From: a virus
Taxonomy: Duplodnaviria; Heunggongvirae; Uroviricota; Caudoviricetes
DNA: 16,953 bases
IMG/VR virus record: IMGVR_UViG_2529293063_000008
Strand: one strand, 5' to 3'
Of the stretch, positions 286-16,761 are shown in pieces. A program made the translations under genes and the position numbers. Under the pieces are notes generated by a model, which did no database searches, had not been told where the DNA came from, and worked only from the letters and a program-made list of their open reading frames with translations. The first letter of the stretch is position 1, and each line of letters starts with the position of its first letter.

Positions 286-1362
286 TTACTCAAATAACTT
301 TTTCACTTCATCAACTGTCTGAAGATAACGTTCGCTCTCAATCTCAATACCTATTGCCTGACGTCCTAACTTCAGCGCAGCTTTAATAGTTGAGCCTGAT
401 CCCATAAAGAAATCGGCAACGATATCTCCGGGGCGTGAACTACTCTTTATAATATGTTCCATCATCGCTGCAGGTTTTTCACATGGGTGCTTGCCAGGAT
501 AATATTGCACAGGAGGAAACTCCCATACATCGGTATAAGGTACATCAGCAGTAACATGAAATGGACGGCGTAAATTTTCATACTGCACCTTCAAATCATC
601 ATACTGCTTCTTTACTTCCTCATAATGTAATTTCAGATCGCTATAACGCTTTTCATGTTCTGAATAATCAACATTAAAAGGATATGGACACTGGACACCG
701 AGTGAATCTGCCTTCCTGCGAAATAATTCGCATAGTTTATTAAAATCAATTAATGATGGAAGCCGCCACTGCGAATAAGAAAACCAGTGTGAACACATCT
801 GCTTTCCTGTCGCTGAATTAATGTCTGCGGCTGATATATCTAACTGACGGCGAGCCAGCGAAAAAGCATCAATTAGTGGAGAAAAAATATTTTTTCTTAA
901 ATCTGCACATTTTGAAGCATAACCTGACTGACCTTTCGCATAACCTGACGCGCCGTAATGCTCTGCAAATAATATTCTTTCAGTAGCAGGAAAATAAGCC
1001 CTTAAACTTTCTTTATGACAACCGCGCCACATACCACTGGGTTTAGCCCAAATGATATGGTTCAGAACATTGAAACGGTCGCGAGTTAATAATTCAATTT
1101 TTGACGCAAGGCGAGAGCCGGTAAACATATACAGGCTGCCATTAGGGGCCAATATCCGCCAAAATTCTGCCAAAAATTCGTCAATCCACCCCAAAAAGTC
1201 AGCATCGCTATCCCACTGGTTATCCCATGCGTTAGCCTTTACGCCGAAGTATGGTGGGTCTGTTGCAATCAAATTGACCGAGTTATCAGGGATGGTTTTG
1301 ATAAATTGCAGAGAATCTGCGCAAACGAGTTGCGCGCCATGAATATTAGTGGTTTTGAACAT
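286..1362 (-). CDS. DNA methyltransferase, beta-class amino-MTase (N6-adenine or N4-cytosine), orphan (no restriction partner seen)
   Basis: DPPY motif (ATDPPYFG) near the N-terminus and FxGSG motif (FFMGSGSTIKAA) near the C-terminus, i.e. motif IV before motif I. Start taken at ATG 1362 (MFKTTNIHG...); the longest ORF starts at ATG 1407. Confidence 0.8.
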   Translation of the reverse strand: MFKTTNIHGAQLVCADSLQFIKTIPDNSVNLIATDPPYFGVKANAWDNQWDSDADFLGWIDEFLAEFWRILAPNGSLYMFTGSRLASKIELLTRDRFNVLNHIIWAKPSGMWRGCHKESLRAYFPATERILFAEHYGASGYAKGQSGYASKCADLRKNIFSPLIDAFSLARRQLDISAADINSATGKQMCSHWFSYSQWRLPSLIDFNKLCELFRRKADSLGVQCPYPFNVDYSEHEKRYSDLKLHYEEVKKQYDDLKVQYENLRRPFHVTADVPYTDVWEFPPVQYYPGKHPCEKPAAMMEHIIKSSSRPGDIVADFFMGSGSTIKAALKLGRQAIGIEIESERYLQTVDEVKKLFE

Positions 1363-1454
1363 AGCTATTATTTTTTTGCCTGGGTAAGCTAACCCGGCGA
1401 TGCGCATCGCGGGTGGGCTTTAGGTTCAGCCTATAGCTCTGGCATGGGTTGACC

Positions 1455-1605: not shown

Positions 1606-1625
1606 TGTGCGACCGTGGTCGCACA
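1606..1625. repeat. Centromere-like palindrome, copy 1 (TGTGCGACC-GT-GGTCGCACA)
   Basis: Core TGCGACCGTGGTCGCA has 7-bp arms and a 2-bp centre; the same core recurs at 5900-5919 and 8345-8360. Same architecture as my recollection of the F sopC SopB site TGGGACC-AC-GGTCCCA. Confidence 0.5.
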
Positions 1626-1629
1626 GTTT

Positions 1630-1857
1630 TTAGAAAGTTGCCTGCTTATATTCATCGGTCAAAGAATATCGACCAGACCCGCTACGCTTTGCAATCCCAA
1701 AACAGATCATCTGTTCGATGATAAATTCAACGGCAGCCTGACTCAAAAAACAGGCTTCGCTTAACTCTTTCAGGGAAATGCGTGGGTATCCACGCATAAC
1801 ACATTCCACACTCAGGGCCGCTTCAGTCATATTTCCACGAATTTCATTAATATTCAT
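1630..1857 (-). CDS. Small putative winged-helix DNA-binding protein (75 aa)
   Basis: ATG at 1857 with SD AGAGAGG 5 nt upstream; C-terminal ...IIEQMICFGIAKRSGSGRYSLTDEY resembles a recognition helix plus wing. Followed by the 1498-1519 terminator. Confidence 0.55.
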   Translation of the reverse strand: MNINEIRGNMTEAALSVECVMRGYPRISLKELSEACFLSQAAVEFIIEQMICFGIAKRSGSGRYSLTDEYKQATF

Positions 1858-4649: not shown

Positions 4650-5068
4650 TACGCCACCTCCTGAAAATTTCCCTGATAAAACGCCAACACACGCTGCATA
4701 ACTTCGCTCTTCCGACAATCGTGACAAATCATGTTCAGGCGCCTGTCGTAGCGACGTATTTCTCCGTCAGGTAATGACCAGATAAGGTCTGGATCAACCA
4801 CTACCGATTTCTTCGGCTTTACTCTTGATAGTTTTTTACGGGCGTTTTGCCAGTCCTTGCGTGCTTGTGCAGACAGAAATATCCCGGAGCCAGAGATATA
4901 CAAATCACCACTGGCAGCAAGCTCTCTTGATAAACGACTAACAGCACACCGGCTAATACCAGTTTCATCCGCAAGTTGCCTAACCGTTCCTCGTCCATTC
5001 AGGCGCACGAGTTCCACAATTTGTTTATTCAGTTCTTCCCTCTGTTCTGGTGTAAAAGCCTTTGCCAT
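4649..5068 (-). CDS. HTH DNA-binding protein (139 aa)
   Basis: ATG at 5068 with SD AAGGAG 7 nt upstream, overlapping the upstream stop (TAATG); HTH-like RQLADETGISRCAVSRLSRELA. Confidence 0.6.
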   Translation of the reverse strand: MAKAFTPEQREELNKQIVELVRLNGRGTVRQLADETGISRCAVSRLSRELAASGDLYISGSGIFLSAQARKDWQNARKKLSRVKPKKSVVVDPDLIWSLPDGEIRRYDRRLNMICHDCRKSEVMQRVLAFYQGNFQEVA

Positions 5069-5667
5069 TACGATTCTCCTTGCCCTTTTACAAGACGGGA
5101 GAAAATTGCAGATACATATTTAGCCTGATGAATAGCATCAGCCAGGGCATTGTGTCGTTCGCCATCAAATGGCATATCTTTTTTAGGATTAAAACCAATA
5201 AACTGACCAAGATTAACGATTGTTCGAACATCCTGATCATTAAAATATTCCCACGGACAGGATAAGCCAACGCGCTCATAAGCGCCGCGTAAAATTACAT
5301 TATCGAACGTTGCTCCATTTCCCCATACTTTCAATGTTTTTAAATTACAAGCATGGCAAGTAATAAAGTGTGATAATTCAAAAAGTGCATCATTAATATC
5401 AAGGGCATCATTAGTACAAATTGCGGCTCTGGCTTCCTTGCTCTGCCGCAACCACCATAAAATGGTATCACCATCGGCAACACCACCATTTAACATCGAG
5501 CTTCTGAGATTCACTGGTACATAAAAAGTGGCACCTAATTCCTCACTTTCAGGAGAAAAAAACACTGCCCCGATAGAAACAATTGGAGCACATGTATTAG
5601 TACCCATTGTTTCAAGGTCAATCATTACATCAGACCGTTTCCTGTCGTAAATTATCTGATTAGTCAC
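5068..5667 (-). CDS. DEDDh-type 3'-5' exonuclease (DnaQ-like fold)
   Basis: 199 aa; Exo I-like MIDLETMG near the N-terminus and Exo III-like HNALADA near the C-terminus; GTG start at 5667 with SD GAGGAG 8 nt upstream (ATG 5625 is an alternative). Confidence 0.75.
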   Translation of the reverse strand: MTNQIIYDRKRSDVMIDLETMGTNTCAPIVSIGAVFFSPESEELGATFYVPVNLRSSMLNGGVADGDTILWWLRQSKEARAAICTNDALDINDALFELSHFITCHACNLKTLKVWGNGATFDNVILRGAYERVGLSCPWEYFNDQDVRTIVNLGQFIGFNPKKDMPFDGERHNALADAIHQAKYVSAIFSRLVKGQGES

Positions 5668-5690
5668 GAATAATTCTCCTCAATGTTTAT

Positions 5691-5864
5691 CTATGCCCAA
5701 AACTTCTGTTGATATGTTCTGGATGGTTTTGGTGCTCTTTCTGATTCAGGTAAATGAACATAAACGCAATATCCATCACCTAAAAAATCAGAACGAACAA
5801 CCAGAACTTTCTTACCACGCCGCCGATAAGTATCTGAAAGACGCTCTGCCTCATCATGCGTCAT
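5691..5864 (-). CDS. Small hypothetical protein (57 aa from ATG 5864)
   Basis: The longest ORF begins at GTG 5918 inside the 5900-5919 palindrome; ATG 5864 (SD AGGGG) and ATG 5894 are more plausible starts. Confidence 0.4.
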   Translation of the reverse strand: MTHDEAERLSDTYRRRGKKVLVVRSDFLGDGYCVYVHLPESERAPKPSRTYQQKFWA

Positions 5865-5874
5865 CGGCCCCTGT

Positions 5875-6177
5875 TTAAATGGCGTTATTTTCATTTTCTT
5901 GTGCGACCGTGGTCGCACCCTCTCTAATTTCCAGATAACGCTTAATCCAAAGATTTTCTATATGCTTATTACCTGGCTGATTTGATAAATACCAATCGGC
6001 AATTACAGACTGCTTATTACTATCGGGTCGTGTCCTGTAACCGCAAGTTGGACACCAGATGACATATTCATTTCTTACCCCCGAATACCTTAATTCTGGC
6101 TTCGACGGTTTCCTGAACATAACTTGTTTACAAAGGCAGAATGGCACTTCCTGCCCGATGGCGTTTGATGATTTCAC
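5875..6177 (-). CDS. Zinc-finger protein, possibly Lar-family restriction-alleviation protein
   Basis: Two Cys pairs (PFCLC ... CPTCGYRTRP) about 27 aa apart, followed by ADWYLSN, in the pattern I recall for Lar-like proteins. Start set at GTG 6177 (SD GGAG) so that both Cys pairs are included; overlaps the upstream gene by about 50 nt. Confidence 0.4.
   Translation of the reverse strand: MKSSNAIGQEVPFCLCKQVMFRKPSKPELRYSGVRNEYVIWCPTCGYRTRPDSNKQSVIADWYLSNQPGNKHIENLWIKRYLEIREGATTVAQENENNAI
5900..5919. repeat. Centromere-like palindrome, copy 2
   Basis: TGTGCGACCGTGGTCGCACC; core identical to 1606-1625 and 8345-8360. Lies inside coding sequence at the junction of two small genes. Confidence 0.5.
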
Positions 6178-6838
6178 TGCGCTTCTCCGCCGCATTTAAT
6201 AATGCGGTTCGATTTAAGCTCAGACATCGCGACTTAATTAAAAGCCAGCGTTCTTTATAATCTTGTCTCCAGCTATCAATAGATATATTCAGTAGAAAAC
6301 TCAGATGCCTGTCCTGTTCTCTCTCATCAACTGCCTCAGCACACGTAAGTTCTGATTTAACCTGCTGTGCCGCGTAATAAATCAATTTCCGCATGGCTTT
6401 TTTCGTGGAGGCCTTCATTTTTTTAAAGCCGCCCCCCGAATGAGCAACCAGAAAATCAAGCCATAACCACTGACAAACAATCACATCATTGTTGTAGTCA
6501 GGCTTGCATCCGTAGCAATAATAAAGCCAGGCTGATTCCTCGTTATTCAACTGACAAATAGCCCTGCGCCAGCTGGCGCTCTGAAAATCAATATCAGTGA
6601 GCAACATTGATGATTGTTTAAATGTTTTCCCCTGGTGGAATCTAACCGGCTCAGCGGGAACGGACACTTCGTATGAGTTATCATCCCCCACACTGATTGA
6701 CCGGACTGGTTTATTGTTAAACCGTCCTGATCTACCGAGACGCATCTGCTCAAGCTGGACCTCCAGAATGCCACGCTGGCGATAATGAACATCAGCCAAT
6801 GCCGTAGAGACGCAGCTGCGTATATACTCAAGCTCCAC
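6128..6838 (-). CDS. Hypothetical regulatory protein immediately downstream of cro (position of a cII- or Q-like early regulator)
   Basis: 236 aa; GTG start at 6838 overlapping the cro-like stop by 11 nt (ATG 6745 is an alternative); Cys-rich segment WLYYCYGCKPDYNNDVIVCQW. Function not assignable by eye. Confidence 0.5.
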   Translation of the reverse strand: MELEYIRSCVSTALADVHYRQRGILEVQLEQMRLGRSGRFNNKPVRSISVGDDNSYEVSVPAEPVRFHQGKTFKQSSMLLTDIDFQSASWRRAICQLNNEESAWLYYCYGCKPDYNNDVIVCQWLWLDFLVAHSGGGFKKMKASTKKAMRKLIYYAAQQVKSELTCAEAVDEREQDRHLSFLLNISIDSWRQDYKERWLLIKSRCLSLNRTALLNAAEKRSEIIKRHRAGSAILPL

Positions 6839-7049
6839 GCTTACGACTCTCCTTAATCGACTGCTTTACCCGCCGAGTTGTAAAGTCACTCTTCAGCTTG
6901 TAAGCAGTACGAACTTCAATATCGCTTTGCCGCAATGAAGGAATCTCTCCAGCGGTTAACCATTGGTAAACAGCTCCGGGTGTTACACCTACCCCTGCCG
7001 CTGCTTTTTCAACACTGCCAAAGTGGCGAATAAGTTCTTCTGGTTTCAT
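6828..7049 (-). CDS. Cro-like HTH regulator
   Basis: Start moved to ATG 7049 (MKPEELIRHFGSVEKAAAGVGVTPGAVYQWL...); HTH motif; divergent from the repressor gene across an operator-containing intergenic region. Confidence 0.65.
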   Translation of the reverse strand: MKPEELIRHFGSVEKAAAGVGVTPGAVYQWLTAGEIPSLRQSDIEVRTAYKLKSDFTTRRVKQSIKESRKRGA

Positions 7050-7080
7050 GTTGTTATTATAAACAATAAACAATAATTAA

Positions 7081-7134
7081 AGCCAGCTATAATAAATAAA
7101 TTTTATAGCCAGCTATAAGAAGATCATTTATGAT
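7081..7134. promoter_or_regulatory. Immunity-switch operator/promoter region with two operator copies
   Basis: AGCCAGCTATAA at 7081-7092 and 7109-7120; the second sits in TATAGC-CA-GCTATA with perfect 6-bp arms (7103-7116). TATGAT (7129-7134) lies 6 nt before the repressor ATG, suggesting a leaderless repressor mRNA. Confidence 0.5.
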
Positions 7135-7140
7135 TACAGT

Positions 7141-7737
7141 ATGAAAACACGAGGCGAACGACTGAAAGCACGCCGTTTAGAGATGAAGCTGACGTTGCGA
7201 GAAGTTGCTGAGGCTGTCGATATCTCTATAGCAGGCGTCCAAAACTTAGAACGTGGCGACGTAATGCCGTCACTGGAGATAGGTATTGCCCTGGCTAAGT
7301 GCTTACGCAAGCCAGTACATTGGGTGCTATATGGGACAGAATATGACCCTGATCGCATTCCTGTTATTGGCACAACTGAAAGTGGGCCTGATGAAGAGTG
7401 GAAGCCGGGACAGGTTCCAAATACTGAGCGATTCCTGCCATTCATCAGCCAGCGCAATACTGTGTATGCGTTAACTATCAGCAATCTTACGCAGGGAAAC
7501 TATCAGCCAGGCGATTTTCTCCTGGTCGATTCTGCGCTGGAACTGGTCCCCGGCGAGGATGTTCTGGTTCGTGATACTGCAGGAAATATCACTATCCAGC
7601 GCCTAGCCCGTTTTGATGATGAAAATTACTATCTGGATGGAACAAACTCACAACGCGCTATCTTCAGGAAAAGCGATCTTGAATTTGTTCACCAAATAGT
7701 CGGAACGATCAAATCATTCATGGTTGAGGGTAGATGA
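7141..7737 (+). CDS. CI-like prophage repressor (N-terminal HTH, C-terminal S24-like domain that appears to lack the catalytic lysine)
   Basis: 198 aa; HTH LTLREVAEAVDISIAGVQNLERG; C-terminal GDFLLVDS...GEDVLVR...ITIQRLAR resembles LexA/CI (GDLLAV...VTVKRL) but has Q where the catalytic K is expected. No Ala-Gly in the linker. Confidence 0.8.
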   Translation: MKTRGERLKARRLEMKLTLREVAEAVDISIAGVQNLERGDVMPSLEIGIALAKCLRKPVHWVLYGTEYDPDRIPVIGTTESGPDEEWKPGQVPNTERFLPFISQRNTVYALTISNLTQGNYQPGDFLLVDSALELVPGEDVLVRDTAGNITIQRLARFDDENYYLDGTNSQRAIFRKSDLEFVHQIVGTIKSFMVEGR

Positions 7738-7982: not shown

Positions 7983-10900
7983 ATGACATTAAACGATTTC
8001 TATGCGGATCGCTTTGGCAGCGATCCGTTCTCGCTAATTGAAGCAGCACGGGATGAACTAACCGAGCTGGCACAGATGGCTGGTATCAACTGGCCTGCCT
8101 GTTCCGACAACATCCAACTCAACCCTCGCGGGGGTGTTGAGCGTTACTCTTCATACAATAAAACATCTCCAGAAGCTCTCGAGAAGAGCCTCAAAGGACG
8201 CGTAGAAATTTACTCCCGGCTGGAACACAGCAAAGGGATTGATTACCCGTTCATTAACTTCGTCCATAAAGGCAGCGATGCTGGCTCATGGAGCGGTTTC
8301 TCCTTCCTGTTTTCTGAATATCGCCGTGAGCAACAACGGAATAATGCGACCGTGGTCGCACAACCGGAAGAAGAACGGGCAAGAATAGAACGTCAGGCCG
8401 AAGCACGTCGTCGCCGTGAAGAACAAAAACGAATTAATGACCTGAAAAACAACCAAATTGACCATGAACGTTTGCTGGGATGGCTGGCATTTCACAGCGC
8501 GTGGGAACATGCTCCTGCAGAAGACGGCTCATGGCCATATGCGATTAAAAAAGGTATTCGTGACGTTTTTAATTCGTGTGATGTGCGTCGCGTGACCAGT
8601 CACGACAGCGCAAAATGGAGCAGGGGGCCAACCACGTATATGGCTATCCCTCTGGCTCACCTGGACGGTCGTTACGATGGTCGTATTGTGGGTTGGCAGC
8701 GAATCGACAAACAAGGTGGAAAATACCAGACCAGCGCAGTAACCAGCGGCGATTTCGTCGGTGCCTGCTTTGTTATCGGTGAGCTGAAAGGGGCGCAAAA
8801 CATCGCTGTTACAGAAGGTTTTGCTACTGGTGCATCCATCTGGCTTGCCACGAAAAAAGATAAACGCTTTGACGCTGTGGTTGTCGCTGTATCCGCTAAC
8901 AACATGGTTCATGTTGTGGAACAACTGGTAAACATGTACCCGGCGGCAAAAATCACCTGCGCACTGGATAATGACCGGAAATCTGCCACAGAAGGAAAAG
9001 GGAATACCGGCCTGCGGACTGGCTATGAAATCTTATCGAAATTCAACGATGTCCGCTGCGTCTATCCAACTTTTGAAGACGATCCGCAAATGGAGTGCAG
9101 TGACTTCAACGACCTGCACAAACTACGTGGACTTCGTGAAACAGCACGTCAACTATTTGCAACAGCAAACCGCCTGAAAACTGGTACTGATTTGCTATCT
9201 CTGACGCTCAACCGCCTGAAGACAATTAAGCGGGATAACCGTCGTACTTTTGCCAAAGAGCTGCTGAGAGCGGTGGATATTGGCATGCTAACCTGTCCGG
9301 TTCCTAACAGTCCGTCAGATTTATTTAACATGTTCTGCATCGTTCTGCGTGAAATGGGACTGGAAAATATCTATCGCGCTACGGTAAAAGACCACATTGC
9401 CCGTCGCCTGAATAAAAAGTGCCGTATTGCCCAGGCTCCGCGCTCTTTCAGCGAACGCATAACTGATCCCAATAAACGCCCTCAACATATCACATATAAG
9501 CGTTTTGAAACTTCGGTAATGACCGATGATGTCCTGAAGTACGTGCAATCACTACAGGGGATAGTCATCGTCCGTGCTGGTATGGGTTCCGGCAAATCTA
9601 CTGGATTGTTACGACCGTTAATGCATAGCTCAGAACGTGGTATCTCTGTTGCTCACCGTGTCTCCCTTATTGGCGGCCTGTGGGAAATGATGACAGAAGG
9701 AAAAGGTGTAAAAGCCGATATCCTGCACTATCAGGATCCTGGCTATCAGGAAATAGCTCCATACGCCAGTAAACTGACCATCTGCATAAACTCGATTGTT
9801 AAAAACTGCTGGCAACCGTTGATGCGCCAGCACGACTATTTTGGCTTTGACGAGGCCACACAAGGGCTACGTGCCGTTCTTTCCGGTCGGGCTATGGAAA
9901 ACCCGGTGGCTGTATTCAATACGCTAATTGACGCGCTGGCCAGAACAGAACAACACCCAATCATGGTGGATGCTGATGCGAATGATCTGCTGGTTGACCT
10001 GGCTGAACTGGCTATGAAACGCCGTGAAGAACTAGGTTTACCGGCATGGCTGCAGATCCACGTAATTGAATTACCTGTTGATGTTCGCAACCGCGAAACA
10101 GGTGAGCCAATCCGGGTTTTTTATACAGAAAAAGATCGCATCATGACCGAGGTGGTGAAAGCTGTATCGGATGGCGAAAAAATCATGTTGGCCACCGACA
10201 GCTCCACCTTTGCAGAAGATGTGACAGCCACCCTGAGAATGCATTTTCCTGGTAAGAAATTTCTGTGTGTAAACCAGAAAAACAAACCAGAGCCAGAAGT
10301 TGAAGCATTTACCAATCAACCGAAAAAGATGGTCAAAAAATACGACGGCCTGATTTATAGCCCGTCTATTTCATCCGGCGTGTCGATTGAGCAAAAACAT
10401 TTTGACCGTCATTTCGGCATGTTCTGTGGTGAAGTTGTACCCAGCGACGCAGTGCAAATGCTACGCCGCGACCGTACAGCAAAAGAATTTATTATCGGCT
10501 TTGATAAAGCTCGTGCAAAACGTGAAACTGACCCGCAAAAAATAGAACGAGCATTCGCCCAGGCATTGCTTGCTACCGCAGGTATGAACGGTGAACTGAC
10601 GGATGTCGTTTTCGATGGCGACCGTATATCAATGGGGGTGGCCAATACCGACTTTACCAGGATGAAAATTAAAGCAGCCGCTATTGAAGCGACTGCGCGT
10701 AACGACTACGCCAGCAACATGATCTGCATCATGCACAGCGACGGTTATAAGGTATCGCCGCTGGCCACCGATTATGCTGCGAATGATATCGGTAAAGAGC
10801 TGCGTAAAGAAGCGCGGGATATTGTGTGGGAACAGACACTGGATCTGCATCTCAATACAGAAACTCCACAAGAATCAGAGCGTGAAGAACTGCTAAAAAA

Positions 10901-11978
10901 ACGCGCGCTGACGCTTGAAGAACAGGCAAAACTTGTCCGCTGGGATATTGAAAACGAACTGAAACTACCGGTTGAAGAAGGCACGCTGAAATTCTATTTC
11001 GATGGTGCTCGAGACAAAGTTCGCCGCTATGAAACAATGCTTTTAGATGAGGTAACAGCTCGTCGTTACGACCGGGAAGAAGCAGCCATCAATTTTACCT
11101 ACGCATACCGTCAGGCGGGACAGTGGCAATATTTTGTAGTGACCGCGATGACTCGCGAGCAGGCTGATGATGTCTTTAAAACTAAATTCCCTGGAATAAT
11201 CGATCACAAGGTAAAAGCTACTCCTACTGTTGAAGTCGGGGCGCGCGGTTTCTATGCGCTTAAATCAGCAACTCTCCGGCAGTACTTTATCGACTGCGGT
11301 ATCAACCCTGAGACTATGACCGGCGAGGCGACTCAGGAGCGTCTCAAATTTGCTCGAGATAACCTCATGACAGCCGAACGCCGTGACCTGTTGAATAACG
11401 TTCTGCACATTGGTGGTTTTATGACGCCAAAAGGGAAGCCTAAAGTGCCGGAAGCGTTGTTTAAAAACATTTGCGACTCTCTTGGCCTTAAAACAGGTAA
11501 ACGTCGCGGCAGAGACGGCGATAAGCGTCCAACCTTGCGTTTTGTTGAGCCTGAATCAGCGGCATTTATGCTGGATATTCTTGCTCAGCGTCAGAAAGAT
11601 GGCCTAACCCTGAAAACGCGTAAAGCCGAGAAGACCGCCATCGAAATGGATCGCGATTTGGATCTCAATATATATATGGATGATAAAACGCGATCCACAA
11701 ACGAGCAGGTTCAAAACGCCCCTCATTCAGTAATTTCTGAGGCTTTGGCTGTGTTGCCAGTGGTTGTACCTGAGTCCTGGGCGATGAGTGCGCTTTCCGG
11801 TGAGGAGCTGGCCACTATGTCATCATGGTCATCAGCCAGCATAGCTATGACGTTTGCATCTCTGTACCTCACAGAGTTCATGGATCACTTATCCAGCAAT
11901 GAACTGCGGCGGTTACGTGAATACATTACCGGGAATAGCCCATGCAGCTACGAAGAGCAGGGCGCTTTCTATGGGTAA
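7983..11978 (+). CDS. repA: Multidomain replication protein: primase (TOPRIM) fused to a P-loop helicase/NTPase, N15 RepA-like
   Basis: 1331 aa; TOPRIM-like IAVTEGFATGASIWLA ... ITCALDND; Walker A VRAGMGSGKST; size matches my memory of N15 RepA. Confidence 0.85.
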   Translation: MTLNDFYADRFGSDPFSLIEAARDELTELAQMAGINWPACSDNIQLNPRGGVERYSSYNKTSPEALEKSLKGRVEIYSRLEHSKGIDYPFINFVHKGSDAGSWSGFSFLFSEYRREQQRNNATVVAQPEEERARIERQAEARRRREEQKRINDLKNNQIDHERLLGWLAFHSAWEHAPAEDGSWPYAIKKGIRDVFNSCDVRRVTSHDSAKWSRGPTTYMAIPLAHLDGRYDGRIVGWQRIDKQGGKYQTSAVTSGDFVGACFVIGELKGAQNIAVTEGFATGASIWLATKKDKRFDAVVVAVSANNMVHVVEQLVNMYPAAKITCALDNDRKSATEGKGNTGLRTGYEILSKFNDVRCVYPTFEDDPQMECSDFNDLHKLRGLRETARQLFATANRLKTGTDLLSLTLNRLKTIKRDNRRTFAKELLRAVDIGMLTCPVPNSPSDLFNMFCIVLREMGLENIYRATVKDHIARRLNKKCRIAQAPRSFSERITDPNKRPQHITYKRFETSVMTDDVLKYVQSLQGIVIVRAGMGSGKSTGLLRPLMHSSERGISVAHRVSLIGGLWEMMTEGKGVKADILHYQDPGYQEIAPYASKLTICINSIVKNCWQPLMRQHDYFGFDEATQGLRAVLSGRAMENPVAVFNTLIDALARTEQHPIMVDADANDLLVDLAELAMKRREELGLPAWLQIHVIELPVDVRNRETGEPIRVFYTEKDRIMTEVVKAVSDGEKIMLATDSSTFAEDVTATLRMHFPGKKFLCVNQKNKPEPEVEAFTNQPKKMVKKYDGLIYSPSISSGVSIEQKHFDRHFGMFCGEVVPSDAVQMLRRDRTAKEFIIGFDKARAKRETDPQKIERAFAQALLATAGMNGELTDVVFDGDRISMGVANTDFTRMKIKAAAIEATARNDYASNMICIMHSDGYKVSPLATDYAANDIGKELRKEARDIVWEQTLDLHLNTETPQESEREELLKKRALTLEEQAKLVRWDIENELKLPVEEGTLKFYFDGARDKVRRYETMLLDEVTARRYDREEAAINFTYAYRQAGQWQYFVVTAMTREQADDVFKTKFPGIIDHKVKATPTVEVGARGFYALKSATLRQYFIDCGINPETMTGEATQERLKFARDNLMTAERRDLLNNVLHIGGFMTPKGKPKVPEALFKNICDSLGLKTGKRRGRDGDKRPTLRFVEPESAAFMLDILAQRQKDGLTLKTRKAEKTAIEMDRDLDLNIYMDDKTRSTNEQVQNAPHSVISEALAVLPVVVPESWAMSALSGEELATMSSWSSASIAMTFASLYLTEFMDHLSSNELRRLREYITGNSPCSYEEQGAFYG
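8345..8360. repeat. Centromere-like palindrome, copy 3 (inside repA coding sequence)
   Basis: TGCGACCGTGGTCGCA exact; encodes ...NATVVAQ... within repA. Confidence 0.5.
8592..8603. repeat. Palindrome GTGACCAGTCAC (copy 2, inside repA)
   Basis: Flanked as CGTGACCAGTCACG; same family as 3353-3364 and 13196-13215. Confidence 0.35.
11648..11696. other. Candidate internal replication origin within the 3' part of repA
   Basis: 8-bp inverted repeat GGATCGCG / CGCGATCC (11648-11655, 11689-11696) flanks the AT-rich TCAATATATATATGGATGATAAAA and includes three GATC sites. I recall the N15 ori mapping inside the 3' part of repA. Confidence 0.3.
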
Positions 11979-14859: not shown

Positions 14860-16761
14860 TTAACCGAAATATGTCAGCCATGCTAACTGCATTGCTGACA
14901 TGGGGCTGTTTGCACTGCCGGACCACGCATAATTCTGGCCATTATAATGAAACTCAACAACGTATGAGCCATCACCAATATTTCTCACCGGCTTAAATAC
15001 CGGCTTAGATACAGGCGAAGAAGGTGCAGGCGGTTGCTGTTCTTCTACGCTCTCTTCCTCTTCCTCTTCCTCTTCCTCTATCTCAATTTCGTCGTCATCC
15101 AGATCGTCATCCTCTGACAATTCATCCGCCAGTTCAGGTATTGCTTCCAGTTCTTCTTCGTCAGGCATAACGATTTCTGGAGTATCTATTTTCAGTTGCC
15201 ATTGTCCGTTTTCGCCAACAAATTGCCCCAGAGCATCAGCAGCAAATTCCAGGTATCGACTAATCATTGTTGGGCTAAATTTGAACGCTCTTAGAGTGCT
15301 GTTCGTGATTTTTATAGAGGGGTCCTGCTCTACCAGCTGCTTAACTGTGTTATGCAGACGAACCCCGGCATCTCCTCTGGCGAATCCAGGCATTTCGTCA
15401 TCAAGCTGCTGCAATGCTTCCAGCCTGGTATTTTCGTTTCCAGTATTTGGCCTCCATGTCTTTGAGAAGTTGGCCAGCTTGAATTGCTTATAGTGTAATT
15501 GAGTGTTTTCATCGTCATGGCCTAAAATTTCCATAAAGAAAACATCTTCATCTACGTTTTTCCAACGAGGATCTACGCGGAAAAACATTTCATACGCAAT
15601 ACGGGCATAAATAGCACGACTATCTTTATAAACACGGCGGTCATCTTTGAAAAATGATTTAACCCACGGGTTAAAAGCCTTTGCTAATATGGCATTAATA
15701 CGTCCGTTTTCAGAGCGTGTGTCGTTATCTCCATAACCTTTAACGACATCATCAAAATCAGATGCTGCTGGGCATGAGCGAAGTACATTTATTAAATAAA
15801 CAAATGTTTTTGCTTCGCATAATGTATATATTTTTCTGGTTATATCATCAGAAGTTCTTTTTTTAGCTTGGCCTAAAAAATCAACGGTATACTTACCAGA
15901 AACAGTAAATGTACCTTGATACATAATCTCAATCATTCGTCTTCCTGACAATGCAGCAAGTGCAAATGCCAAAGGAGCCATACCTGAACGAGTGTTTAGA
16001 TTATTTAATGTAGCAGGGCTATTTATAATATCGTAAATAGCTTGCATATATTTAGGGTAATCAATGACCACCACGTTACGTTTCTTATTGTGCAGAACGT
16101 CCGCCCATCGTTGCTGGATAGATGCACGTTCGGCAGGGCTTAGTTGAAGATGATAGAGAATCTCATGGTTAACTTTTAGCTGATTCAACTCCTCAAGTAA
16201 GGCAGATCCTTGCTGTAGTAATTTATATAAATAATCGCGCTTATCTTTCCAGTTATCGCTAGTTAAATCAGAAATGGCGAATTGCCACTCTTTATATTTA
16301 TTTGATAATTTCAATAACTTATTATGACTTTTGTTATCGCCAATTCTGATATTAGATAAATCTTCTGATAGAGGGAGAATTAATTTTAATTTTGCCTGTA
16401 AAGCTGACATTCTCTGGCGAATATCGGCAGCAGGTAGAGAAAGCCATGACAATAGCTCCTCATTATATAAAGGATACTTTTCAGATAGGCGATGTATATT
16501 TTTTTCAAAGCTATGATGAAGTTTATCATCAAACCGTTTTCTGGCCCTGCTCATATAGGCATTGAATGTGTTGGCTGTAATTCTTTTTTCTAATCCTTTC
16601 CCCCTAAACTTTCGCTTGTCATTAAATAATGCATTTTTAAATTTTAATGCAACAGCCTTTATTTTTTTTGTTTTCTCCCCTTGAGGACGGTCAGAGTTAT
16701 CTATTGACTCAACATCGCTAACAAGTGAGTTTATTAATTCACCGATTTTTACTTTGCTCAT
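14860..16761 (-). CDS. telN: Protelomerase (telomere resolvase), TelN-like
   Basis: 633 aa; N-terminus MSKVKIGELIN..., length and an acidic Glu/Asp-rich stretch before the C-terminus match my memory of N15 TelN. SD AGGAGAGG. The gene abuts the terminal half-palindrome. Confidence 0.8.
   Translation of the reverse strand: MSKVKIGELINSLVSDVESIDNSDRPQGEKTKKIKAVALKFKNALFNDKRKFRGKGLEKRITANTFNAYMSRARKRFDDKLHHSFEKNIHRLSEKYPLYNEELLSWLSLPAADIRQRMSALQAKLKLILPLSEDLSNIRIGDNKSHNKLLKLSNKYKEWQFAISDLTSDNWKDKRDYLYKLLQQGSALLEELNQLKVNHEILYHLQLSPAERASIQQRWADVLHNKKRNVVVIDYPKYMQAIYDIINSPATLNNLNTRSGMAPLAFALAALSGRRMIEIMYQGTFTVSGKYTVDFLGQAKKRTSDDITRKIYTLCEAKTFVYLINVLRSCPAASDFDDVVKGYGDNDTRSENGRINAILAKAFNPWVKSFFKDDRRVYKDSRAIYARIAYEMFFRVDPRWKNVDEDVFFMEILGHDDENTQLHYKQFKLANFSKTWRPNTGNENTRLEALQQLDDEMPGFARGDAGVRLHNTVKQLVEQDPSIKITNSTLRAFKFSPTMISRYLEFAADALGQFVGENGQWQLKIDTPEIVMPDEEELEAIPELADELSEDDDLDDDEIEIEEEEEEEEESVEEQQPPAPSSPVSKPVFKPVRNIGDGSYVVEFHYNGQNYAWSGSANSPMSAMQLAWLTYFG

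Follow-up and report, generated by a model that had tools for sequence, protein, structure and literature searches.

The dispersed SopB-binding centromere sites of phage N15, IR1-IR4, were reportedly described by Ravin and Lane in 1999 and by Grigoriev and Lobocka in 2001. The four IR oligonucleotides all share the core GTGCGACCNNGGTCGCAC (PMC7205306, Table 4), a working N15 centromere has been built from such oligonucleotides, and N15 SopB foci form on this built centromere (PMC7205306). Furthermore, sopAB gives stable inheritance to plasmids that carry the N15 centromere site located within repA, and this single IR was reported to be enough when sopAB is supplied (PMC2847241). The four sites of the N15 genome are found in repA, 183 nt downstream of Q, in the interval that separates gene 51 from the annotated late promoter of gene 52, and past gene 58. 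The site at record position 33479 falls in gene 37 (IR1), and the site at 41124 (IR3) has gene 51 on one side and, on the other, the -35/-10 annotated for gene 52. IR2 reads GTGCGACCTCGGTCGCAC and is flanked by ...AAAGAGG. The record of phiKO2 shows four features named "putative plasmid partitioning site" in the same four relative positions as in N15: one is in gp35, the second is 183 nt after Q, and another precedes a "putative late promoter". Sites of N15 and of the F plasmid differ at position 4/4' of each half-site, a position reported to separate their specificities, and the determinants of sequence specificity in the protein are carried by the helix-turn-helix segment (PMC2910045).

The window and its three palindrome copies

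The DNA analyzed here, referred to as the window, is a stretch of 16,953 nt that shows 96-97% identity to the Escherichia phages YDC107_1 (Ravinvirus) and PhiR46_1 over 94-96% of its length, as well as ~74-77% identity to N15, phiKO2 and several Klebsiella phage-plasmids in the replication and immunity region. PhiR46_1 is the nearest complete relative, with 96.8% identity over the window. These identities and the gene order, which is the reverse of the N15 map (Table 1), identify the window as the right arm of a linear plasmid-prophage of the N15 type. What the initial annotation called the leftward early operon is the cro-Q operon. The open reading frame downstream of Q matches PHROG phrog_6795 (E=2.7e-45) and, under the curated cut-off, the Pfam family Lar_restr_allev (E=3.5e-4); it is referred to as the Lar-like gene. 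In the cro/repressor intergenic region (7065-7116) we also found a tandem pair of 26-nt AT-rich repeats, 81% identical and ending in AGCCAGCTAT, which, judged by their position, probably serve the immunity region as operator or promoter elements.

Table 1. Features of the window, with the PY54 boxes added in the last row (PY54 genome coordinates).
Feature	Position	Strand	Remarks
Methylase gene	286-1407	-	
Exact palindrome copy	1607..1624	.	Closely follows the gp51-like gene and precedes the methylase gene; N15 IR3 counterpart, adjoins the late promoter
gp51-like gene	1630-1857	-	
Exonuclease gene	5068-5667	-	After two small ORFs downstream of Q
Small gene, function unassigned (phrog_1212)	5691-5894	-	Probable start ATG 5894; mechanical ORF 5691-5918
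Lar-like zinc-ribbon gene	5875-6195	-	106 codons, the last 14 traverse the palindrome (..E G A T T V A Q E N E N N A I*); N15 and phiKO2 have homologues
SopB-box palindrome, putative	5901..5918	.	GTGCGACC-GT-GGTCGCAC; coding strand GTGCGACCACGGTCGCAC; counterpart of N15 IR2 and phiKO2 partitioning site 2
Q antiterminator	6128-6838	-	Pfam Phage_antiter_Q, E=2.7e-84; directly upstream of the Lar-like gene, same leftward operon
cro	6828-7073	-	
Prophage repressor	7141-7737	+	
repA	7983-11978	+	
Palindrome copy with one mismatch	8344..8361	.	ATGCGACCGTGGTCGCAC (ATGCGACC...); 361 nt inside repA; N15 IR1 counterpart
telN	14860-16761	-	
F-type boxes of phage PY54	508, 6566, 22251, 26513, 30984, 31240, 34394, 39870, 40976, 41121, 44409		

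A centromere-like palindrome had been placed at 5900-5919, where the + strand reads tGTGCGACCgtGGTCGCACc. The palindrome is real, but that interval takes in one non-palindromic base too many at each end; the inverted repeat proper is GTGCGACCGTGGTCGCAC, with arms of 8 nt and an asymmetric centre of 2 nt. The description as centromere-like is well founded, since the repeat fits the consensus of N15 IR1-IR4, with 0 mismatches to GTGCGACCNNGGTCGCAC, and lies in the same position as N15 IR2, which aligns to 5901-5918, and as the annotated phiKO2 site. The reported overlap with the 3' end of the Lar-like gene was also found: on the coding (-) strand the box reads GGT GCG ACC ACG GTC GCA C and takes up codons 93-99 of 106 (G A T T V A Q).

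The window contains three copies, 2.4 and 4.3 kb apart, which are dispersed and do not form a tandem array. No further copies with up to three mismatches were found in the window, and the number of such matches expected by chance was 0.00 (mean of 200 dinucleotide-preserving shuffles). According to the N15 coordinates and the phiKO2 annotation at matching relative positions, the three copies are the counterparts of IR1, IR2 and IR3. The region of IR4 is outside the window, beyond its left end. PhiR46_1 shows five boxes, two of them in the IR4 region: these are exact boxes (17793-17810 and 18013-18030), 220 nt apart, that follow the lysis genes, in a place occupied by one IR4 in N15 and in phiKO2.

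The sopAB genes are also outside the 16.9-kb window. From ~36.7 kb to its end, the YDC107_1 record (CP025712.1) contains an inverted copy of the right arm past the protelomerase gene (telN, BRO, repA fragments and repressor), with many split genes in the duplicated part, and it contains neither the tail-fibre nor the sopAB end; the record appears to be a fold-back assembly via the hairpin telomere. Since the left end is absent from this fold-back record, sopAB was searched for in PhiR46_1, where a ParA/ParB operon is found at the far end of the linear genome.

Taken together with the comparisons given below, the palindrome is very probably a binding site for the element's own SopB, a protein of the ParB family, and the counterpart of N15 IR2, one of several scattered single sites. 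By analogy with the F SopB-DNA structure and with the N15/F domain swaps, a SopB dimer would read both 8-bp arms via its helix-turn-helix and would leave the central 2 bp unread. Bound dimers would then nucleate a partition complex, which the SopA ATPase would use to segregate the low-copy linear prophage at cell division; a second role in phage gene expression, dependent on location, could be added to this. As the single IR in repA was reported to suffice for stable inheritance, the partition role of the copy at 5901-5918 may be redundant. N15 IR2 and the second partitioning site of phiKO2 were already known, and the palindrome is therefore a correct rediscovery and not a new element. Nevertheless, the box is unannotated in the closest records, YDC107_1 and PhiR46_1, and its assignment is useful for their annotation.

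Conservation of the box at a coding junction

To study the drift of the gene around the box, 61 loci were retrieved from IMG/VR and GTDB genomes using residues 1-90 of the Lar-like protein as query, so that the palindrome was excluded from retrieval. Together with the window, N15 and phiKO2, these loci gave 49 distinct sequences over the region: 41 belong to the N15 group (69-100% protein identity) and eight are more distant. All 41 sequences of the N15 group show the box at exactly the same place, with invariant arms in which the sole change is a terminal C-to-T in a Klebsiella subgroup. Third-codon positions vary at 0 of 6 sites in the arms and at 74 of 85 in the rest of the Lar-like ORF (Fisher p=1.9e-5), and, counting all positions, 1 of 16 varies in the arms in relation to 120 of 256 elsewhere (p=0.0012; 41 sequences in both cases). 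The two central bases vary freely among the same sequences: 15 have AC, 12 GC, 10 GT, three AT and one TC. These changes encode T, A, V, M or S, which indicates that the protein is indifferent at the central codon. Furthermore, the Lar-like ORF of the Klebsiella subgroup meets a TAG stop immediately past the box, and the part of the protein tail beyond this point is therefore dispensable. No relative that keeps the Lar-like gene and lacks the palindrome was found among the retrieved loci. The claim that the site is maintained inside coding sequence, and the codon-level conservation proposed as a check on it, were thus both borne out by invariant synonymous positions in 41 distinct relatives, in none of which the site is lost. 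These comparative data are a clean case of a protein-binding site that overrides synonymous drift within a gene.

Within the 18-mer, which is otherwise frozen, the centre changes fastest. The window has AC at 5909-5910 (coding strand); its closest IMG/VR relatives (L007-L022 and L056, with 100% identity in the Lar-like N-terminus) have GT, except for one, L019, which has GC. An inversion of the spacer was considered as the origin of the AC and GT centres and rejected, because with the GC intermediate of L019 two single transitions are enough.

The position of the box in relation to the coding sequence differs between lineages. In PY54, in locus L057 and in the N15 group, the Lar-like frame continues through the box; in five of the distant loci, the box is intergenic: it starts 2 nt past the stop codon of the Lar-like gene and precedes the Shine-Dalgarno sequence of a different downstream gene. 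As the box is intergenic in these five loci, its overlap with coding sequence is incidental; constraint acts on the DNA site, and the tail of the protein just reads through it. In the Klebsiella phage Kpn74, the downstream gene has lost its 5' two-thirds and the box is intact. The retention of the box whether it is coding (N15 group and PY54) or intergenic (five distant loci), as well as in Kpn74, was counted in favor of a SopB site. In the Kpn74 sequence (OQ790078.1, L108; 680-775), the box GTGCGACCGCGGTCGCAT is directly followed by the 3' third of a phrog_1212-like gene; the deletion comprises ~140 nt and one of its endpoints is within a few bases of the palindrome.

The initial annotation gave weight to a GTG start of the downstream gene inside the palindrome. 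Such a codon is literally present, as the GTG at 5918 that opens the longest ORF (5691-5918, - strand) is the first triplet of the palindrome; however, the phrog_1212 profile begins at the ATG at 5894. Residues 1-66 of the 67-residue product from this ATG match profile positions 1-65 of 66 (E=4.7e-25), and its initial motif, MKxTPFKQGPM, is conserved in N15 and phiKO2. In the N15-group alignment, the stretch from the box to the ATG varies at all three codon positions, and a period-3 pattern begins after the ATG. A GAGG abuts the GTG at 5918 with no spacer, a geometry that should be poor for initiation, and the annotation of PhiR46_1 sets the start even later than 5894. On these sequence features, the real start of the phrog_1212 gene is probably the ATG at 5894 and not the GTG at 5918. 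With this start, the palindrome belongs to the Lar-like tail, and 6 nt separate its end from the likely start of the next gene; the proposed overlap with the 5' region of that gene holds for the mechanical ORF but not for the likely gene, which starts past the box. Also against the importance of the GTG, distant relatives have a different gene after the box and Kpn74 keeps the box with the downstream gene truncated.

The GTG start given for "orf QD1" in YDC107_1 is probably wrong as well. Concerning the origin of this name, the N15 immB record (U45242.1, L003) reads GGCTG-AC at 2088-2105, inside IR2, where the complete genome (NC_001901, L002; 13931-13948) reads GGTCGCAC. This discrepancy, a cluster of substitutions and a 1-nt deletion, joins the Lar-like ORF to the small ORF downstream of it, giving a 143-aa "orf QD1", and YDC107_1 has inherited this name for both ORFs. 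The discrepancy looks like a compression that arose when the GC-rich palindrome was sequenced.

Box type and ParB recognition helix

ParB of PhiR46_1 is 74% identical to N15 SopB. Their recognition helices read EGVDRNII and EGIDRNIV, respectively, and the helix-turn-helix segments are AEAEGVDRNIISRCIN in PhiR46_1 and AEAEGIDRNIVNRCMN in N15; the former is of the N15 type. A cognate SopB of this type is assumed for the window from PhiR46_1, its 97%-identical relative.

In the eight distant loci (49-57% identity) a palindrome likewise marks the end of the Lar-like gene, but its arms differ: six loci have TGGGACCNNGGTCCCA, one has TGGGGCCACGGCCCCA and one has the imperfect GTGTGTCCACGGTCACAC. The first of these is the sopC box of the F plasmid (TGGGACC..GGTCCCA). 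The changes are symmetric across both arms, at position 4/4'. Locus L063 has a perfect TGGGGCC..GGCCCCA at 1781-1796, and L062 has GTGTGTCC..GGTCACAC at ~1781-1798, with a mismatch in one arm; these two arm variants may represent additional SopB specificity types.

The SopB loci that could be paired with Lar-like loci across IMG/VR contigs encode only N15-type SopB, and box type and helix type were therefore compared using PY54 and F instead. The Yersinia phage PY54 is one of the eight distant loci. Its genome has 11 F-type boxes (Table 1), among them one in repA, one where the Lar-like gene ends (34394) and a pair ahead of the methylase gene. ParB of PY54 (SpyB) is 53% identical to N15 SopB, and its recognition helix, AEAENISRKIIMRCIK (ENISRKII), matches ADAENISRKIITRCIN of F SopB (PDB 3mky) and is unlike that of N15. 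The centromere box thus co-varies with the ParB recognition helix, which is the pattern expected for the target of a co-evolving, dimeric, sequence-specific protein; RNA structure would not give such a pattern. The boxes of PY54 are found genome-wide, including the structural-gene arm and the inside of spyB; members of the N15 group have four to five, in the right arm only.

Alternative readings and comparison with described systems

According to the initial annotation, binding at the palindrome could couple assembly of the partition complex to expression of the early operon. The idea of such coupling is not new: Ravin, Rech and Lane reportedly found a related effect in 2008, namely that the N15 Sop system facilitates late gene expression. 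Regulation of phage genes by SopB bound at the box, alongside partition or instead of it, is a tentative possibility, either by bridging between IR2, close to Q, and IR3, close to the late promoter, or by damping or insulating cro-Q read-through. Three box positions are kept from N15 to PY54 (in repA, after Q and the Lar-like gene, and before the late promoter and the methylase gene) through changes in box type, ParB helix and neighbors, and a SopB-mediated silencing assay on an N15 4xIR array is mentioned in PMC7205306. However, the sequence itself shows no regulatory effect, no promoter-like or terminator-like site overlaps the box, and the downstream gene differs between lineages.

Partition alone would not need the strict positional conservation observed in N15, phiKO2 and PY54, which hints at an extra role. 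Selection on the position of the box, in addition to its presence, is in our opinion a rather doubtful proposition; it would fit a second job for the partition complex, such as bridging the Q region and the late promoter, or tying replication and late transcription to the state of the complex. The same conservation could merely reflect linkage to the conserved Q/Lar-like module. If position is selected, the C-terminal tail of the Lar-like protein would be an accidental read-through of a DNA site. The conserved placement of the boxes is a sequence-level reason to revisit the reported link between Sop and late expression in N15.

A very improbable alternative is a role of the palindrome at the RNA level, where a hairpin in the cro-Q transcript would serve as a stability element, as a processing site, or to bring the upstream GAGG near the ATG at 5894 for translation of the small downstream gene. 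The transcript is predicted to form a 7-bp GC-rich hairpin that ends 6 nt before this ATG, and all members of the N15 group have the GAGG that directly precedes the box on its 5' side; nevertheless, the invariant third position of the GAG is not significant, as 11 of 85 third positions (13%) are invariant anyway. The arms are conserved in sequence, beyond mere pairing, and this sequence is found again in other contexts, among them the inside of repA, and on either strand. Between lineages, the arms change in step with the ParB recognition helix. Furthermore, in the distant loci the box is followed by a separate Shine-Dalgarno sequence for the next gene, and Kpn74 keeps the box without the downstream start. 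No intrinsic terminator was found at 5900-5919 on either strand; the hairpin is followed by AAGAAAAUG and not by a T run, and a search for promoter-like sites overlapping the box was negative. Rfam 15 gave three chance-level matches over 5400-6400 (E 0.2-0.5), none of them at the palindrome. A "split Shine-Dalgarno" formed by GAGG, hairpin and ATG was also considered and found unsupported: it involves one invariant synonymous position, and neither the distant relatives nor Kpn74 agree with it.

A chance palindrome, or the target of another protein (repressor operator, restriction-modification site or protelomerase site), would account for the palindromic form alone and is effectively refuted, with 0 matches expected, a fit to the experimentally used SopB sites of N15, and no relation to the annotated CB operators or the telRL repeat of N15.

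The reading of the palindrome as a SopB site agrees with the described systems as follows. In N15 IR2 the arms GTGCGACC/GGTCGCAC are identical to those of the window, both sites follow Q at a distance of ~180-210 nt, where the Lar-like ORF ends and shortly before the MKxTPFKQGPM gene, and both elements have sister sites in repA and before the late promoter. They differ in the central dinucleotide of the coding strand, AC in the window and TC in N15, in the flanking DNA, which is ~77-79% identical, and in the number of boxes, five in the closest complete relative in relation to four in N15. In phiKO2 (AY374448, 40345-40362; annotation of Casjens et al.), the coding-strand box GTGCGACCACGGTCGCAC is identical and lies at the same gene junction, although the host is Klebsiella and the flanks are ~74% identical to the window. 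PY54, with its SpyA/SpyB system, shares the box at the orthologous Lar-like 3' end, in repA and before the methylase gene; its arms, however, are F-type (TGGGACC), its copies are 11 and its ParB helix is F-like. Finally, the 43-bp repeats of F plasmid sopC are arranged in tandem, and every repeat has a TGGGACCACGGTCCCA box to which F SopB binds (PDB 3mky/3mkz). The protein family, the architecture of the box (arms of 7-8 bp and a 2-bp centre) and the partition mechanism are in common with F; in contrast, arm position 4 is C in the window and G in F, and the F boxes form one tandem array beside sopAB, whereas those of the window are single, kilobases apart, in some cases within genes, and far from sopAB.
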